Below are positions 23,806 through 61,216 of a stretch of DNA of 64,000 nt, piece by piece. How positions within the stretch are numbered: position 1 is the first letter of the stretch; each line of letters begins with the position of its first letter. Both the position numbers and the translations under genes were made by a program. Where the stretch lies: positions 1-64,000 of the forward strand of contig CAXXVK010000064.1 of NCBI GenBank assembly GCA_963676915.2, given 5' to 3'. The notes under the pieces were generated by a model. That model was given only the letters and a program-made list of their open reading frames with translations. It searched no databases and had not been told where the DNA came from. Source of the stretch: Myxococcota bacterium (GTDB lineage: Bacteria > Myxococcota_A > SURF-8 > G963663525).

Positions 23806-25023
23806 ATGGCCGTGGAAACAAACGATAAAATTGATGAGAAAACGAGTTCCTCGTGGAATAAAGTGTTTCGTTTTCTTGCGTGGTTGGGAGGGATTTTCGG
23901 GGCGTTTTTCAATCCTCTCGTCGCTCCGAATCTCTTGTGGTGGCCTTACGATCATTGGGCAGAGCATCCCGGCTGGTGGCTTTCGTTCCTGTTTCTGCTC
24001 TGCTTGTGGTTTTGGGTTGGCGGGTTGGCTTTTGTCGCCACTGTTAAGTTTTCTCGTAAATTTCGGTTCATTCTTGCACCGATTCTTGGGCTGTTTTTTC
24101 TCACGGCTTTGATCGAAAGCGGTTATCACACCGTTTATTTTACTCGTTATTTCAGTCAGTTGGATGCCATCGAACAACCGCCCGATCCGTTGTACGAAGT
24201 TCTGGACGAGTCTTCTCGCCGCTATCGTCTTCGTCCCGGCACACAAGTAAACATGCCTTCAGAACGAGACGGAGAGCAAACGGTTCCTGTGACGATCAAC
24301 CTGTTAGGAATGCGGGATACGAAGGTTCGGGTTTCCGTAAATGAAAAAGCCCTGCGCATTCTTTTTGTGGGGGACTCCGTCACGTTTGGTCCCAAACTGC
24401 CTATCGAAGAAACATTTCCTCAAAAAACGGCAACACTTTTGGAGAACGATCTGAATCGAGAGGTTCAGGCATTCAATTTCGGAATTCCCGGTTACAATCT
24501 GCCGGAGATAGCGCAGTTTCGCTCCATCGTGCCGTGGGAGGTTATTCATCCGAACCTCCTAGTATATGCCGTGTGTCTCAACGATGCGCATCTGGAAGAA
24601 GAAATCTACGATCCTGCTACCCGTTCCCTCGTTCCACGTCATCGGTTTTCGGCAGTTGTATGGGGAATCCGATCCTTGGTTCTTGGCGAGGAACGTGAGC
24701 TAGGCCGCCTGTTGGATCAGGTTTTGGAGCAGTCCGTTGCAGATCAACAAGCACCGGTGGTCGTTCTTTTGCCTACGGCTCCGTATCTTAGGGGAATTCC
24801 TGAAGAAAACGCCAACTCCGACCGGAAAGCAGCAGCGTTTTTCAGAAAACACCTTGCAGAAAAAAATGTACCGGTACTTGATTTGTTGGATGCCGAATGG
24901 CCACAGCCTGTAGAAGAAAACTATCTTCCAGGACCGGACCCCGCCCATTTCAGTACAAAAGGATCGCGTTTTGTCGCGGATCGGCTAGTCCGATTCCTCG
25001 AAACGTTTTTACAAAAACAGTAA
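23806..25023 (+). CDS. SGNH/GDSL hydrolase, membrane-anchored
   Basis: GDSVTFG, NFGIPGY, CLND and DPAHFS blocks. Confidence 0.85.
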   Translation: MAVETNDKIDEKTSSSWNKVFRFLAWLGGIFGAFFNPLVAPNLLWWPYDHWAEHPGWWLSFLFLLCLWFWVGGLAFVATVKFSRKFRFILAPILGLFFLTALIESGYHTVYFTRYFSQLDAIEQPPDPLYEVLDESSRRYRLRPGTQVNMPSERDGEQTVPVTINLLGMRDTKVRVSVNEKALRILFVGDSVTFGPKLPIEETFPQKTATLLENDLNREVQAFNFGIPGYNLPEIAQFRSIVPWEVIHPNLLVYAVCLNDAHLEEEIYDPATRSLVPRHRFSAVVWGIRSLVLGEERELGRLLDQVLEQSVADQQAPVVVLLPTAPYLRGIPEENANSDRKAAAFFRKHLAEKNVPVLDLLDAEWPQPVEENYLPGPDPAHFSTKGSRFVADRLVRFLETFLQKQ

Positions 25024-25036
25024 TCGAAAACGGAAC

Positions 25037-26983
25037 TTACCAGTCCAATTTTCGAAGCGCTTTTTCCACGTCTTGGGCGTTGAGTCTTCCCACGAGTTCC
25101 GGCATTACCAGTCCCATACCCCAACGGATTTTCGCTTCAGGGTCCGTGCTGGCGAAAGGTTTTCGAATTTCCCGTTTTTCTTTAATGATGTTCATCAGTT
25201 CGGTTTCGAGATTTACCGTTCGGATCGCGTATTTCGATACGATGGTCTCGACAGGAGTATCCGGGCTTTGAAGAATCGTTTCGAGAATCGGCGTGAGGCT
25301 TTGCAATAACAATTCGCCGTTGACCGCTTTTTGTGCCAGCATTTCAACGAGTTCGGCAGTGAAACGTTCGACGCCCAACCCTTTACGCTGTCCAAAACGC
25401 AATTTTTGTGTAACTCGGCAAATCAGGCTTCGCAGGTCGATATCCGGTGATTCGGCAAGCAGGGTTTCGAACAGCGTTCCCATTTTGCGAACGACGAGCA
25501 TGGAAAGCACATCTTTGGGAAGATGCAGCGGAACTAGCTTTTCGGACAACTCCCACGGCATTTTCGGTAGATTCCTGCGAATTTCCGACACACGTTCCGG
25601 GGTGATTTCAATCGGCGGAAGATCCGTGTCGGGATACATCCGGTCGGCTCCCGGAAGGATGCGTTCGAAACCGTTGGTGCCATCTTTGTGGTGACAGCGG
25701 GTTTCGGCGGGAACGCCTTCGGTAGCTTCTTTGGCACGGATGATGATTTCGTTTGCGGCAGTGAGGATGTCGTCCTTCGAACCCCAGGTGACGACCACGG
25801 CGTCCTCGGGTCCGGCTTTCAGTTTTTTCCTGATCCGATGCCATTGACTGTTGGAAATCGTTGGGTCGAGAGAGTCGGAATGAATCATATTCGGGTGGCC
25901 GTGCAGACAAGCGATGATCCGTACCCGGTCCGAAATCTCACGGGCGAACGAAGTCATGGTTTGTGTTTGTTCGCGCAAAATCCCGGCAAAGCCTTCCAAC
26001 TTCACCGCACGCATTCGCTGGCCTTTTTCCAAGGCGTGCAGGATGGGGATGTACGAGGTCTTCAGCAAGGCTCCGGTCACGTCACGATGCTCGGCATGGA
26101 ACGTCTCGGGCGTAATTCCTCGCTTGCTTAAAATATCCTTGATTCTCAAAAGGTTCCATTGACGCATTGCCTCATTGTAGACCAGCAGCGGAATGCGTCG
26201 CAGGGAATCCACACCCTTGATTTCGATTCGAGTGCCACCGGCGATGGAAACGTTGACATCCTCGCGTCCAGCGCCGATTCCGGTACGGACCTTTCCCGTA
26301 GCGCGAACCAAAGCCCGTAGGATTTCACCCACTTCCATACATTCGGTCGGCGTAACCATCTCCGGCTCGGTGACGGTTTCGATCAGCGGCATACCAAGGC
26401 GGTCGGTTCGGAACGTAATACGGTGACCGACGTTTTCGACTTCTCGGCAGGCATCTTCTTCCAGGCCGAGTTGACGGATACCGATACTGCGGTCATTGTA
26501 AGGAATACTACCGTTGATACCCAGAATCGTCGTACGCTGAAACCCGGTAGGAATCGAACCGTCCAGATACTGCTTACGAGCAATGTGCAACTCGCCGATC
26601 AGATTAAGTTTCAAAAGAAGTGCGACTTCTATGGCGATATCCACCGCTTGATCGTCGATTTCAAAAGGCGGGGCATCGTCCATTTCATAGGTGCAGACCG
26701 TCTCCCGGTTGAGCAGATAGACGATTTCTTTTTTCGTCTTGAATTCCATCAAGGCGGTGCCGTCGTATTCACCCAATTCCGAAAGCGTGGGACGCATGTG
26801 CCGTAAAACCTCGGCGTCGTGTTTTTTCGAATACAGACCCGCTTTGCAACGACAGAACAGCTTGCGTTCGGTCAACAACTGCTGGTGAATTTCCAAGCCG
26901 GTACGAAGGCCGAGCGCGTGCCAATCTTCATCCGTCATTTCGGGGAGTTTCTTAAAAGGATTGCGTGAAAAATCATGTTCCAT
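25037..26983 (-). CDS. gatE: Glu-tRNA(Gln) amidotransferase subunit GatE (archaeal type)
   Basis: GLEIHQQL..KLFCRC, RPTLSELGEYD, RKQYLDGSIPTGFQRT, LEEDA, DRLGMPLIE, REDVNVSIAGGTRIEIKGV and LPGADRMYPDTDLPP. 648 aa including the AspRS-like insertion that GatB lacks. Confidence 0.92.
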   Translation of the reverse strand: MEHDFSRNPFKKLPEMTDEDWHALGLRTGLEIHQQLLTERKLFCRCKAGLYSKKHDAEVLRHMRPTLSELGEYDGTALMEFKTKKEIVYLLNRETVCTYEMDDAPPFEIDDQAVDIAIEVALLLKLNLIGELHIARKQYLDGSIPTGFQRTTILGINGSIPYNDRSIGIRQLGLEEDACREVENVGHRITFRTDRLGMPLIETVTEPEMVTPTECMEVGEILRALVRATGKVRTGIGAGREDVNVSIAGGTRIEIKGVDSLRRIPLLVYNEAMRQWNLLRIKDILSKRGITPETFHAEHRDVTGALLKTSYIPILHALEKGQRMRAVKLEGFAGILREQTQTMTSFAREISDRVRIIACLHGHPNMIHSDSLDPTISNSQWHRIRKKLKAGPEDAVVVTWGSKDDILTAANEIIIRAKEATEGVPAETRCHHKDGTNGFERILPGADRMYPDTDLPPIEITPERVSEIRRNLPKMPWELSEKLVPLHLPKDVLSMLVVRKMGTLFETLLAESPDIDLRSLICRVTQKLRFGQRKGLGVERFTAELVEMLAQKAVNGELLLQSLTPILETILQSPDTPVETIVSKYAIRTVNLETELMNIIKEKREIRKPFASTDPEAKIRWGMGLVMPELVGRLNAQDVEKALRKLDW

Positions 26984-27032
26984 GGCGTAAATTCCTTATG
27001 TGGCTCATCGCTTCCTAAAAAAAATCCTCTGG

Positions 27033-27061
27033 AATGTATGTGGAAAACGTGCGAAGGACAA
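27033..27061 (-). promoter_or_regulatory. Putative sigma70 promoter of gatE
   Basis: Minus strand TTGTCC-N17-TACATT, 50 bp upstream of the ATG and downstream of the preceding terminator. Confidence 0.45.
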
Positions 27062-27079
27062 GAAAAATCCGCACGCATT

Positions 27080-27108
27080 AAAAAAGGCCCGGATTGCTCC
27101 GGGCCTTT
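27080..27108 (-). terminator. Rho-independent terminator
   Basis: AAAGGCCCGGA-GCAA-TCCGGGCC followed by TTTTTT on the minus strand, after the 27135..27746 gene. Confidence 0.85.
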
Positions 27109-27134
27109 CGTGTTAACTCTTTGAAATCAAAGAA

Positions 27135-27746
27135 TTATTCATCCAGGGATTGGATGTATTCAACTTCTTCCACCGCGATATCGTAGACATCTCCGGGTAG
27201 ACAGACTTTGCCGGTGTCTGCATAGTAGTCGGCGATTTGTTCTTCGGTGAAACCGAATTCATCCGCTCCGACGCAAACCTGGTCGCTGTCAGGGGCGCAA
27301 TCTTCGTCGGTGTTGCAAAGGCGCAGGCACAGGCCGATGCCGGGAACGCCCATGATCGGCTCGACGCTCAGGCAGTAGGCACCTTCGGAAGCCGGGCATC
27401 CAGTGCCACCAGGCTGGCACAGATCTGTGGTGCAGTAACCGCCGGGGATTTCAAATTCGGCATCGCCTTCCAATTGGAATTTAGTGCGGGCCGTTTCCGG
27501 GGTCAAACAAACGGATTGGTTGCAGTCGGCTTCTTCCGTGCAGGGGGCACCGATGTTTTTGTCTGCAAGAGCGATGACGTTGGCATCGACGGGAGCGCTT
27601 TCTTCTTGCTCTGCAACCACGTCTTCATCGCCTTCATTTTGATTGTTATTGCCATCGTCGTCGTCGTCATCACCGCCACAGCCAACCATCGTAACCGTAG
27701 CCGCCAGAAGCAGCATCGCCAGAATCCATAAAGATTTCTTCGTCAT
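27135..27746 (-). CDS. Cys-rich acidic lipoprotein of unknown function
   Basis: Lipobox MVGC, a GGDDDDDDG tether, and many Cys in short modules (GAPCTEEADC, PGGYCT, CLRLCNTDEDC). Confidence 0.8.
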   Translation of the reverse strand: MTKKSLWILAMLLLAATVTMVGCGGDDDDDDGNNNQNEGDEDVVAEQEESAPVDANVIALADKNIGAPCTEEADCNQSVCLTPETARTKFQLEGDAEFEIPGGYCTTDLCQPGGTGCPASEGAYCLSVEPIMGVPGIGLCLRLCNTDEDCAPDSDQVCVGADEFGFTEEQIADYYADTGKVCLPGDVYDIAVEEVEYIQSLDE

Positions 27747-27963
27747 TTTTTCCTCTCCTTTTTGAAGTTGTCGTATCGACTTTTTCTTACCGCTTTCGAT
27801 GGAACTTTTAGATATTCCGTAACGAATTCGAATACATGCATTTCCTTGCGTAAACCGAAGCGATACTACTGGCAGCCTCGTTCGACGTCAAGCTTAGAGT
27901 GCAAAAAAGTCGCTGAATTTCAGTACAAACCATCTATAAGACCCACATTTCGTGCGTTGGGTA

Positions 27964-28609
27964 TTATTTGGGCACTTTTTCCCAGTCTTTCATGAATTTG
28001 CTCAGGCCGATGTCCGTCAGGGGATGTTTGGCCAGTTGTTTCATGACACTGAAGGGAATCGTCGAGACGTGAGCGCCCATCAGCGCGGAGTCCAACACGT
28101 GTACCGGATTGCGGATGCTGGCGACGAGTACTTGAGTGTCGTAGTCGTAGTTGTCGTAGATCTGAATGATCTGCTCGATCAATTCCATACCTACGTTGCT
28201 GATATCGTCGAGGCGTCCGACGAAAGGCGAAATGTAGGTAGCTCCGGCTTTGGCGGCAAGCAGCGCCTGCGCGGGAGAGAAGCACAAAGTCACGTTGGTT
28301 TTGATTCCTTCTTGGGACAAGGTACGGACCGCTTGCAAACCATCGAGAATCAACGGGATTTTAATGACGACGTTCTCGCCGTACTTGACCAGTTCCCGAG
28401 CCTGCGTCACCATGCCTTCGGCGTCGAGCGCGGTAACTTCGAGACTGATCGGTCCATCGACCAGCTCGGTGATGTCTTTGATCACTTCTTCGAACGTGCG
28501 TCCGGTTTTGGCGACGAGAGACGGGTTGGTCGTCACGCCATCCACCAGACCCCAGCCCAGTGCGGTGCGGATTTCTTCAATATCGGCGGGTGTCGATAAA
28601 AAACTGCAT
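27964..28609 (-). CDS. tal: Transaldolase/fructose-6-phosphate aldolase (short type); apparent +1 frameshift in codons 7-8
   Basis: [20 protein letters not shown] and [17 protein letters not shown] + ATG at 28609 reads MQFFIDT; removing one C near 28589 restores [22 protein letters not shown]. Confidence 0.85.
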
Positions 28610-33452: not shown

Positions 33453-34988
33453 TTACGGTTTTGGTGTTTCAGTTGTTAGAAACGAGAGCAGTTCCTCTTT
33501 CGTGAGGGTTTGATTCTTTTCGGAGAAACGAAACGTTTGGTCGTCGATCACGGTAATTTGGAGGTTCGAAGCGGTTTTTTCCGTATCCAATCGACAAGAG
33601 ATGCCTCGTTGGTTGAGGGTTCTCATCAGGTCGTAGGCCACACTAAAGCGGTTTGAGGCTGCAAGGATCGAAACTCGTGGGAAATCGGGAGCTTGTATGG
33701 TGTCGTTTCGTTCAATCGCCGATAGCAATGTTTCCAGATCGATCGCCATCCCCACCGCGGCAAGATTCGACTCCGGTTCGTTCGATGGTCCTGAACGCTG
33801 TACCAACCATTTTACGAGGGAATCGTATCGTCCACCTCTGGCAATCGCTTCGATTTCTTCCGGCACGCGGGCTTCGAAAGTCAGGCCGTTGTAGTAACTA
33901 AACCCTTTTCCAGGCGGAGGATCGATATCGACTTCCACACCCGCCGAAGCCGTGGTTTCTAGGATTTCACGAAACGATTCCAACAGGGGCCGTGAAGCTT
34001 CGCAACGTGCAACGTAAGGTTCGGCCTTTGAAAGAAATTCTTCCCAATTGCCGGAAAGTTTGGACAAATTCAGAGCTTCGGTGATGCTCTCGTCCGATAG
34101 ATGCAAGGCATGTCGCCAAGCTGTCGTGACAAGCATTTGCTGGAGTTCGGGGAGTTGCGCTCTCCAGTGTTCCAGAGAAAAATCCGTAGGTTTGGCTTCG
34201 GGATCGAACTCCTCCGGCCTATCTTGTGGTTCCAACCAGTCGTATAGATTGACCATACGGTCGAAACGATTTTTCATTCGGGCGAGCATCCAGGGCACGT
34301 GAAGGTTCAGTTCCTCGTTGTCGGCTCGAACGAGACGACGCAGAAAGCCGGTTCGTCGGATTGCCATCAGCACGGAAGACGCCTGTTCCGGGATGACGCC
34401 GCAGGAAATGATCCAGTGCTCGAAAAGCTCGGCGTGACCTGCATGAAGAGAAAATCGTTCGATTCCGCACGTTTTCAACAAATCATGGCACAAACAGAGA
34501 ATTTCCGCGTCCGCAGCGGTTCCTTTTAAGCCCAGAATTTCGGCATCGACCTGTCCGCGCTCCTTCAGTTGCCGCAATGGATCGAGATCCTGAAAGATTC
34601 TTCCCGATGAACAGACACGCATGGGGAAAGAGGGCTTTCGACTTCCGAACAATGAGGACCGTACAAGCGGTGCGGTCAATTCGGGACGCAACGCGACTTC
34701 GTTGGTTTCTTCCTCGAAATCTAAGCTGGACGGATCTTCGGAACTATGTGACGAAAACGTTCGCCATTCCCCGATTCTACCAAGAATCAGGTTCGAAAAC
34801 GGATCGACGCCGATGCGGTCGGGATGATACAGGTCGATGTATTCCAGCGAGGAGATTTGGCAGGGATCGAAACCCCTTAGACGCAACTGATCCAGCAGAA
34901 GGTTTTCAACTCCCCGGTAGCGAAGAGCAGCGTCCCCATGCAATTCCCTGAATCCGGCGGGCAAAGTGAAACGATGAGATTCGTTCAT
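33453..34988 (-). CDS. hisZ: HisZ-like histidyl-tRNA synthetase paralogue with a large internal insertion
   Basis: LPAGFREL, ALRPELT, ADAEIL, YYNGLTFE, GGRYD and AVGMAIDLE; degenerate motif 2 (GRIFQD). Alternative start at 35039. Confidence 0.62.
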   Translation of the reverse strand: MNESHRFTLPAGFRELHGDAALRYRGVENLLLDQLRLRGFDPCQISSLEYIDLYHPDRIGVDPFSNLILGRIGEWRTFSSHSSEDPSSLDFEEETNEVALRPELTAPLVRSSLFGSRKPSFPMRVCSSGRIFQDLDPLRQLKERGQVDAEILGLKGTAADAEILCLCHDLLKTCGIERFSLHAGHAELFEHWIISCGVIPEQASSVLMAIRRTGFLRRLVRADNEELNLHVPWMLARMKNRFDRMVNLYDWLEPQDRPEEFDPEAKPTDFSLEHWRAQLPELQQMLVTTAWRHALHLSDESITEALNLSKLSGNWEEFLSKAEPYVARCEASRPLLESFREILETTASAGVEVDIDPPPGKGFSYYNGLTFEARVPEEIEAIARGGRYDSLVKWLVQRSGPSNEPESNLAAVGMAIDLETLLSAIERNDTIQAPDFPRVSILAASNRFSVAYDLMRTLNQRGISCRLDTEKTASNLQITVIDDQTFRFSEKNQTLTKEELLSFLTTETPKP

Positions 34989-35050
34989 GTCGGTTCCGAT
35001 GCTCGAAATGTCGAAAGTTCTTTTCCCGGGCGATTCCATACGAATCCGGG

Positions 35051-35494
35051 TCAATCGTCGGGTTGGCGATCCCTCAAACCGCCTACGATCATCCATTGAC
35101 CGTTTTTTCGGTGCAGGATCAGACGTTCGGCGCCCTTGACTTTGAACTGATTTTTATCGGAAAACATCGTGGCTTTGAAGTCCTGCTCGGCAAAAATTTC
35201 CTCGCCACGAATCTGAACGTCTCGCCGGAGGACCGTCAACTCGACTTTGGAAACGCCTTCGAAAGTTTTTCGAATCATTTCCATCAGGCTGGCGCGGTCG
35301 CCGATCTCGTCTTTGTAGTCGGGCGAAATCAGTTTTTCGTATGCAGCGACATCCGCCGTTTCCATCGCTTTTTTTCGGGCGTCGAGGACACGATTGGCGT
35401 CCTTGGCCATGCGTTCTTCCCGGCTTTCGCAGGCGGTGAGGAAGGACGTAAACACCGCTAATAAAAAGAACGAGCGACAACAAAAACGGATCAT
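35051..35494 (-). CDS. Small lipoprotein, NTF2/SnoaL-like fold
   Basis: Lipobox LTAC; DVAAYEKLISPDY...NGQWMIVGG pattern; ATGA overlap with the bamD stop. Confidence 0.7.
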   Translation of the reverse strand: MIRFCCRSFFLLAVFTSFLTACESREERMAKDANRVLDARKKAMETADVAAYEKLISPDYKDEIGDRASLMEMIRKTFEGVSKVELTVLRRDVQIRGEEIFAEQDFKATMFSDKNQFKVKGAERLILHRKNGQWMIVGGLRDRQPDD

Positions 35495-59541: not shown

Positions 59542-61216
59542 ATGGTGATGGAAGCAACGATTCAGCTTGCAGCGGTGGACTGGCTGATTATCGCCCTGTA
59601 TTTCGTGGCGATACTCGGCATCGGGTTGTATCTCAAACGCTTCGCCGATACGAAGGAAGACTTCTTCGAGGCCGGGCGTCGAAACAGTTCCTGGGTTGCG
59701 GGACTGGCCTTTGTGTCGGCCAACCTCGGTGCATTGGAAATCCTGGGATGGACCGGCGGAACGATCAAGTATGGCATGTTTGTGAGTCATTTTTACTGGA
59801 TCGGCGCAATTCCGGCGATGCTGTTTTTGGGATTGTTCATGATGCCATTCTACTATTCCAGCAAAATCCACTCTATTCCGGGCTATTTGCTGCTCCGCTT
59901 CGACGAGAAAACCCGTGTTCTAAACGCTATCGCATTTGCCGTAATGACGGTGCTTGATGAGCGGTATCAACATGTATCTGATGGCGCTGGTGTTTCATGT
60001 TGTGTTGGGATGGAACATGGATGTTTCCATCTGGATCAGCGCAGCGGCGGTAGGTTGCTACATCACGTTGGGAGGGCTGATGTCTGCGATTTTTACGGAA
60101 ATCGTGCAGTTTTTCCTGATTTGGTTCGGTTTGTTCCTCGTGTCGCTGCTCGGTATCATCGATCTGGGAGGATTGAGCCAGATCTTTGCCGGATTGCCGG
60201 ACACCATGGCCGGGTTGTGGTCCACCGCCGGGGACGCCAGCCTCAACGACATGGGCGTTACCTGGGTGGGAATCGTGCTCGGTCTGGGATTCGTGCTGTC
60301 TTTCGGCTACTGGACCACCGACTTCCTGCTGGTACAGCGCGCTTTTTCGGCCAAGGATCTCCAAGCCGCACGTATGACCCCGATCATCGCCGCGTTTTTC
60401 AAGATGATCCTGCCGTTTATCGTCGTGGTGGCCGGTTTGGTGGCGTACCAATTGATCGCTCGTGGCGACTTGCCTAAAGAACTGTTGGAGAATCCTGACT
60501 CCGCCTTGCCGTTATTGATCGCCAGGTACTATCCGCCGGGACTGATGGGATTGGGTATTACGGCCTTGCTTGCCGGATTTATGGCCAATTATGGCGGGTA
60601 AGCGGGTAAGAGAGTAGCCTTCAATACGGTATGGACTTACGATATCTACCGAGTGATCTTCAAGCGTGACGCCACCGACGAGCACCTGCTCAAAGTCGGG
60701 CGCATCACTACGGTGGTGGGAGTGTTCATCAGCATCATAACGGCGTATGTCGCCATGCAGTTCAGCACCATCATGGATTACATCCAGGCTATTTTTTCCT
60801 GGGTCAACGCGCCGCTGTTTGCAACAATGCTGCTTGGAATGTTCTGGAAACGCACCACAGCCGCCGGGGCTTTTTGGGGATTGATCGCCGGAATGCTGAC
60901 CTCGTTTTCGATCTTCCTGGGCTTCCGTTTCGGTCTGATCGGCGAGTCGGCTACATATCTGATCACCATGAGTCACGAGCCGTCCGACATGACGAAGAAC
61001 CTATGGCAGGCGTGGTGGGCCTGGGTGGTCTGCTTCGGCTTGACGATCATCATCAGCCTGTTTACTGCACCCAAGCCGGTGGAAGAACTCAAAGGTCTGG
61101 TGCGTGGTCTGACGGAAAAAGCGGAATTGGGACACGTTCCCTATTGGCGCTGGCCGGAAGTCTGGGCCGCTGTGGCGCTCGTCGCGTGTCTGATTCTCAA
61201 CATTTACTTCTGGTAG
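59542..61216 (+). CDS. Sodium:solute symporter (SSS), probably for galactose or another sugar; disrupted in this sequence
   Basis: DFFEAGR, SANLGALE, GYWTTDFLLVQRA, AFNTVWTYDIY and NAPLFAT. Extra T at ~59955; garbled 60590-60609 with a duplicated GCGGGTAA and an in-frame TAA. Confidence 0.82.

Follow-up and report, generated by a model that had tools for sequence, protein, structure and literature searches.

A bacterial-type GatE gene in a Myxococcota genome, unlinked from its gatD partner

We analysed a window of 64,000 nucleotides (positions 1 to 64,000 of contig CAXXVK010000064.1, assembly GCA_963676915.2), which comes from a Myxococcota bacterium and carries a gene for GatE, the kinase/transamidase and tRNA-binding subunit of the amidotransferase GatDE. 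The coding sequence (25037..26983, minus strand) was delimited as an open reading frame (ORF), assigned by profile searches, and specifies a protein of 648 amino acids. Within a large bacterial GatE group, already annotated in databases and undiscussed in the literature searched, it is an ordinary representative. The genome of this stretch is referred to as G000 and its contigs by C-numbers; G001 is the sister species in the same genus.

The gatE gene and its product

The protein passes both GatE equivalog models, NF003107 (521.9 bits, cut-off 456) and TIGR00134 (426.8 bits, cut-off 319.55), and lies far under the cut-offs of the GatB models, the best of which is NF004012 (149.2 bits, cut-off 338), followed by TIGR00133 (128.6 bits, cut-off 314.8). 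A preliminary description of this DNA, made from its sequence alone, had called the protein a full-length GatE with the insertion specific to this subunit, and both points are borne out. Based on Pfam, GatB_N spans residues 28-465 and is split by the GAD insertion (PF02938, residues 316-405; 25.9 bits, cut-off 23.4). Concerning the tail, PF02637 (GatB_Yqey) gives a weak match of 22.5 bits, under its cut-off of 27, and the NF003107 match reaches residue 645. The YqeY-like tail domain of GatE reads the tRNA's D-loop, with the motif GXXAXGX. In the protein studied here (PEAKIRWGMG) the archaeal tail consensus g..a...lMG, by which the motif was placed instead of by published coordinates, is not retained.

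The nearest solved chains are archaeal GatE, from Pyrococcus abyssi (1zq1_C, 2.4e-98) and Methanothermobacter thermautotrophicus (2d6f_C, 2.4e-90). According to PMC2330236, mutation of the Mg2+ ligands His15, Glu157 and Glu184 inactivates archaeal GatE. H33, E175 and E202 align with these residues of the M. thermautotrophicus protein and are taken as their counterparts, because the alignment blocks are ungapped with an offset of 18; all three are invariant among 13 aligned bacterial GatE sequences. By these marks the product of 25037..26983 is judged to be a true GatE, intact, and not a GatB.

Transcription unit and flanking genes

Nine nucleotides ahead of the ATG lies a Shine-Dalgarno-like AAGGA (26993..26997, minus strand), found by reading the sequence. 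Further upstream, a weak sigma-70-like match (TTGTCC-17 nt-TACATT, 8 of 12 positions; 27033..27061, minus strand) was picked out by eye and falls under the scan threshold; its role as the gatE promoter is a guess. A 12-bp hairpin with a U-run (27080..27109, minus strand), recognised by sequence reading and folding, is the putative intrinsic terminator of the upstream gene. The hairpin folds at -22.3 kcal/mol with a z of -5.14, and none of 200 shuffles is equally stable; the consensus promoter/terminator scan listed neither this hairpin nor a promoter-like site ahead of gatE. The end coordinate 27108 used in the preliminary description covers the terminator and not coding sequence.

The flanking genes were identified by ORF and profile searches. 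Upstream is a gene for a Cys-rich protein of 203 amino acids without a family match (27135..27746, minus strand), and downstream, in convergent orientation, a gene for a GDSL-like acylhydrolase of 405 amino acids (23806..25023, plus strand), the end of which is 13 bp from the gatE stop. Neither of them is gatD, so the gene indeed has no gatD beside it, and both also flank gatE in G001. The terminator would separate gatE from upstream transcription and the convergent gene would close the transcription unit, and gatE is predicted to be monocistronic. A putative promoter of its own had been described together with the monocistronic state: the latter is upheld by the terminator and the convergent gene, whereas the former comes down to the weak 8 of 12 match.

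Bacterial and native location of gatE

Other genes of the window encode a TonB-dependent receptor, LptG, an LpxG-like protein, BamA, BamD, TamB, a lipid A acyltransferase, SurE and FolK; the contig that bears gatE is that of a diderm bacterium. We examined ten genomes of the same order (G000-G009) and 31 others of the phylum. GatE is above the cut-off in all ten genomes of the order, two of which are single contigs, and in four of the 31 others. When the phylum was sampled evenly (301 genomes), 41 genomes had a GatE match at an E-value of 1e-100 or below, 31 of them above the cut-off, and the distribution follows lineages: the gene is found in all sampled members of families f4 (6/6) and f19 (14/14) and in none of f9 (0/27) or f12 (0/23). 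Because all ten genomes of the order contain GatE above the cut-off, the gene is considered to be inherited in the lineage and not archaeal contamination.

The assembly of G000 consists of 74 contigs with an estimated contamination of 3.79%, which could be taken to favour the view that the gene is archaeal contamination or else a misread GatB paralogue. The chance of this is next to negligible, given the diderm genes on the same contig, the GatE of every genome in the order, the low GatB scores and a placement with bacterial GatE in the trees described below. Archaeal contamination as such is ruled out by the first two of these, the single-contig genomes included. The presence of GatE in a bacterial chromosome, as originally described, is thereby confirmed.

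The GatD partner and its gene arrangement

The gatD gene of G000 is located on contig C11 (6638-7840) and scores 492.3 bits against a cut-off of 324. Its product has 466 amino acids and the domains GatD_N, Asparaginase and Asparaginase_C; it matches P. abyssi GatD with 396 bits and keeps the motifs GTGGTIAS, HGTDTM and RSSDRPSSDA. In an alignment of GatD from 13 bacterial genomes (A2), the G000 protein is 69-74% identical to the 12 others, some of them from the same order and some from other phyla. Averaged over columns, the identity of GatD across phyla is 82%, far above the 54-58% seen for GatE.

Of the 14 sampled phylum genomes with GatE, 13 have GatD above the cut-off, and in the remaining one GatE runs off the contig end. 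The gatD gene directly follows gatE in G002-G009 (8 of the 10 genomes of the order), as well as in G019, G023 and G028. Among the genomes of the order the two genes are apart only in this genus (C64 and C11 in G000, C4 and C1 in G001). The neighbours of gatD, like those of gatE, are identical between G000 and G001, and since G001 shares them around both genes, the separation predates the split of the two species. The unlinked arrangement appears to be a derived feature of this genus: a gatE-gatD operon would be the ancestral state in the order, from which the genes would have been separated before the two sampled species split, with both retained.

Between G000 and G001 the ratio of nonsynonymous to synonymous substitution rates (dN/dS) is 0.105 for gatE (dS 1.12, amino-acid identity 83%) and 0.034 for gatD (dS 0.94, amino-acid identity 95%), which indicates that both genes are under purifying selection in this genus. 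The locus adds the point that selection can maintain both gatE and gatD after the two have become separated.

A complex of GatE residues 1-480 with GatD was predicted with a score of 0.71, the best of three controls being 0.00. Of 80 solved complexes, 58 attain the mark applied to this score, as do 2 of 110 mismatched pairs; these counts hold only roughly because alignments made for this analysis were used. At least 88% of contacts recur between the prediction runs, and the partner has a predicted local distance difference test value (pLDDT) of at least 84. The pass may reflect memory, because archaeal GatDE complexes have been solved (1zq1, 2d6f), and the prediction is taken to show likeness to GatDE and not binding.

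As gatE had been regarded as an orphan, another ammonia donor had been suggested; with gatD present on C11, none is needed. A GatE that acts without GatD through such a donor would agree with the lack of gatD inside the window, but we regard it as very improbable in view of the C11 gene, its shared flanks in the sister species, its dN/dS of 0.034 and the predicted complex.

The bacterial GatE family

Scanning a single genome for each species gave at least 594 matching stretches, of which 80 loci were kept for closer study, and bacterial-type GatE relatives are encoded in at least 575 species genomes. Going by their record titles, all of the kept loci come from bacteria (Ignavibacteria, Kapabacteria, Bacteroidota, Aminicenantes, KSB1, Calditrichota, Cloacimonetes, Marinimicrobia and Myxococcota). 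Proteins named GatE at 54-58% identity to the one studied here are found in Latescibacterota, Myxococcales, Planctomycetota, Ignavibacteriae, Aminicenantes and Krumholzibacteria. This agrees with the previous remark that GatE-like genes are annotated in some bacterial genomes: NCBI and JGI annotate bacterial-type GatDE in metagenome-assembled genomes (MAGs) of many phyla, and its likeness to the present protein consists in this identity and in a common tree group. Identity to representatives of the archaeal clade is 31-38%, compared with 41-59% to bacterial-type proteins.

Gene order was examined in 89 loci, 79 of which have a clean GatE ORF: gatD is directly downstream in 62, there is no room downstream in eight, and it is not adjacent in nine. 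Of the 71 bacterial loci that have both a clean ORF and downstream room, 62 thus have the two genes side by side. The locus studied here, with a monocistronic gatE and gatD on another contig, differs from this usual operon, and seven to nine other loci are also without an adjacent gatD. No third conserved neighbour of gatE-gatD was found among the 89 loci, and no glutamine synthetase gene or asnA was seen to adjoin gatED there. Those neighbours that do recur (PhoH-PIN, aldehyde dehydrogenase, an outer-membrane barrel protein, a major facilitator superfamily (MFS) protein, acyl-CoA dehydrogenase and H+-pyrophosphatase (H+-PPase)) reflect synteny within lineages.

For a comparison of columns, 77 bacterial ORFs from the loci (species genomes) were set against 78 archaeal-clade sequences (50% cluster representatives). 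Among the columns conserved to at least 80% in both sets, 90 have the same residue and 23 have different residues. The shared columns include GLEIHQQL, DGS..GFQRT, LEED, DRLGxPLxE, RxDxNVS and RMYPxTD. Features of the bacterial set are an FKPF..MT extension at the N terminus and the insert ACL (residues 358-360). Positions conserved to at least 80% number 283 in the bacterial and 124 in the archaeal-clade set, counts that are not comparable because the sets were sampled differently.

Trees were built with FastTree (124 rows) and with IQ-TREE (66 rows, quick search, LG+G4), and were rooted on the GatB of the genome itself, a single long outgroup. In both, the query groups with the named bacterial GatE proteins and away from the G000 GatB. 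A misread GatB paralogue is ruled out by this placement and the GatB scores; grouping with GatB, which had been named as the outcome that would speak against a GatE, was not found in trees or profiles. The IQ-TREE tree contains a clade of 30 rows with a Shimodaira-Hasegawa-like approximate likelihood ratio test (SH-aLRT) support of 100, the first two branches of which are the only named archaeal proteins (Heimdallarchaeota and Thorarchaeota); the query and all named bacterial GatE proteins are outside it. Calling this clade archaeal rests on the two names and on a score level that matches the solved archaeal chains, as most of its rows are nameless. Neither tree resolves the bacterial-type rows into a single clade, and therefore the trees cannot tell old bacterial inheritance from old transfer. 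The position outside the whole archaeal clade would also fit GatDE in early bacteria rather than an archaeal invention.

Some family members have unusual features. P0152 (943 amino acids) is predicted to join a tail-less GatE core to a complete GatD; it is a single case and a possible gene-call artefact. P0183 (781 amino acids) is a GatE with an N-terminal AAA_17/AAA_18 kinase-like domain. P0313 and P0351, labelled Thermoplasmata or Thermoplasmatales, fall in the bacterial-type group beside Zixibacteria; the label of P0313 may be wrong because the protein sits on a 5.16-Mb contig.

Relation to archaeal GatDE and to GatB

GatE studied here shares with archaeal GatDE (M. thermautotrophicus 2d6f, P. 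abyssi 1zq1) the order of domains, which runs from the cradle through the GAD-type insertion and the helical region to a putative YqeY-like tail, and the Mg2+ ligands. Also shared are a GatD partner with GatD_N and asparaginase domains and the gatE-gatD pairing, which is kept in most bacterial loci. The differences are the host, a diderm bacterium with GlnRS, GatCAB, AsnRS and a U1:A72 pair in tRNA(Gln), the bacteria-specific N-terminal extension, the altered tail motif and, in this genus, the unlinked genes. GatB of GatCAB has a paralogous kinase/transamidase core with a YqeY-like tail; it lacks the GAD insertion, and its partners are the amidase GatA and GatC instead of an asparaginase-type GatD.

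In reviews and primary papers GatDE is stated to be confined to archaea, and scenarios for the last common ancestor have been built on this (PMC2811023 and PMC9499178). No discussion of bacterial GatDE was found in the full-text literature searched. A GatDE native to a bacterial order stands against the archaea-only statements, and it raises the question of what use a tRNA-dependent amidotransferase has for a cell in which direct charging of tRNA(Gln) already takes place, and of how a U1:A72 tRNA is read.

Proposed function beside other charging routes

In the family, as described in PMC2330236, GatD frees ammonia from Gln or Asn, and the tRNA-borne acyl group is phosphorylated and amidated by GatE. 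By homology, a GatD dimer would hydrolyse Gln or Asn, and the ammonia released would pass via a tunnel to GatE. GatE would bind the acceptor end of a mischarged tRNA, phosphorylate the side-chain carboxylate with ATP and Mg2+, and then amidate it. The most likely substrate would be Glu-tRNA(Gln), converted to Gln-tRNA(Gln), by an enzyme that is accessory and not the only route in this organism. The reading that we favour, with some reserve, is that gatE encodes the E subunit of a bacterial-type GatDE, probably an accessory Glu-tRNA(Gln) amidotransferase beside GlnRS and GatCAB, with GatD supplied from C11.

Several findings weigh against a canonical role of this kind. The genome of G000 contains GlnRS (C62, 788.7 bits), GatCAB (gatB on C14, plus gatC-gatA), a complete AsnRS (C19) and an AsnB-family gene. 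The proposal that this bacterium makes Gln-tRNA by an archaeal-style route is not supported: because GlnRS, GatCAB and AsnRS are all present, G000 does not rely on it. Bacteria with GlnRS usually have a discriminating GluRS, which would leave no Glu-tRNA(Gln) as substrate. Also, of the consensus g..a...lMG in the archaeal tail, no more than lmG..M remains in the bacterial set. Both tRNA(Gln) genes of G000 have U1:A72, as do five of five in G003, G007, G044 and G045. Archaeal GatDE recognises A1:U72 of tRNA(Gln) (PMC9499178), and a check of the 1-72 pair, which had been recommended, gave U1:A72 and not this archaeal pair. A bacterial GatDE acting on tRNA(Gln) would need to accept the former.

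The co-occurrence of the charging routes was recorded in 64 bacterial genomes with GatDE, 14 of this phylum and 50 of other phyla; the latter were drawn from the 80 kept loci, with contigs of about 17 kb or more, and an AsnB-family match was counted at an E-value of 1e-30 or below. Many of these genomes are related, and the counts do not represent independent cases. In this phylum GatB is found in nine, GlnRS in 11 and AsnRS in all 14 genomes, and in the other phyla GatB in 22, GlnRS in 46, an AsnB-family protein in 30 and AsnA in two. Taken together, GlnRS is present in 57 of the 64 genomes, and neither GlnRS nor GatB was found in two MAGs, for which completeness is not given. GatDE is hardly ever the sole route to Gln-tRNA among these 64 genomes, and because of these counts the canonical role looks dispensable, a further point on the negative side.

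Another possibility is a role of bacterial GatDE outside routine charging, such as the clean-up of mischarged tRNA, the use of Asn as amide donor under particular nitrogen conditions, or an acyl-tRNA that does not serve translation. GatDE is almost never the only route and yet is strongly conserved (mean identity of 82% for GatD columns, 283 GatE positions at 80% or more in 77 bacterial sequences), and the bacteria-specific FKPF..MT extension and the ACL insert at 358-360 would also suit a role of its own. Nevertheless, the catalytic and tRNA-binding domains all appear to be retained, the 89 loci offer no third conserved neighbour, and nothing points directly to another substrate, so that we consider such a role improbable.

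Asparagine offers a further alternative. In bacteria that keep AsnRS but are without asparagine synthetase, GatCAB makes asparagine on the tRNA. Bacterial GatDE may accordingly be an Asp-tRNA(Asn) amidotransferase, or be dual-specific, and give tRNA-dependent asparagine synthesis; we regard this as unlikely, though less so than a role outside charging. Ten of the 50 genomes of other phyla have neither GatB nor an AsnB-family match nor AsnA, and one of them (G043) is a complete chromosome of 3.9 Mb. AsnA and AsnB are missing from ten of the 28 genomes without GatB and from ten of the 22 with it, and the tRNA(Asn) of G000 also has U1:A72. The pattern in the ten genomes fits a role in making asparagine on tRNA(Asn) but does not show it.

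Against this reading, the ten genomes represent few independent cases, as by record title they fall into about two lineages, Aminicenantes and Ignavibacteriales. Asparagine auxotrophy would explain these genomes, of which the completeness is not given, equally well. TIGR00458, the model of the archaeal-type non-discriminating AspRS, is under its cut-off in five of five such genomes, where the best matches are the AsnRS genes themselves. It is argued in PMC2330236 that a class II AspRS would clash with the insertion domain of GatE, which is retained in the bacterial protein. In addition, G000 has GatCAB and an AsnB-family gene of its own. A broader form of the idea, in which bacterial GatDE would be a distinct old branch with changed tRNA recognition, no back-up for Gln-tRNA, and a maker of asparagine through Asp-tRNA(Asn) in lineages without GatCAB and AsnA/AsnB, is likewise doubtful. 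The accessory Glu-tRNA(Gln) amidotransferase is still the reading that we prefer.

Minor observations

Some further features were seen among the charging genes. The GlnRS on C62 (locus L005:1072-3303, minus strand) has 743 amino acids and a C-terminal PF01588 tRNA_bind domain, and several other genomes of the phylum have GatB/YqeY-like tail matches in or beside long GlnRS reading frames. The sole bacterial-type GluRS of G000 (C23, about 27220-28602, plus strand; locus L008) is found in three pieces, in frame 0, in frame 2 for about 55 amino acids, and again in frame 0. The two compensating frameshifts, with two TGA codons inside the match, are probably assembly indels in an essential gene. A second, partial AsnRS (292 bits) is present at a contig end (C15:1-645, plus strand) and could stem from duplication, strain variation or contamination. 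The ten GatDE-bearing genomes without a GatB, AsnA or AsnB-family match are G043, G044, G045, G309, G315, G317, G334, G339, G344 and G350, and all of them contain GlnRS.

Concerning the rest of the window, two adjoining ORFs (59542-60477 and 60653-61216, both plus strand) match the N- and C-terminal parts of one sodium/solute symporter, which suggests a split gene or an indel. A HisZ/HisS-like protein of 547 amino acids (33453-35096, minus strand) matches its family in two stretches, which suggests an insertion.

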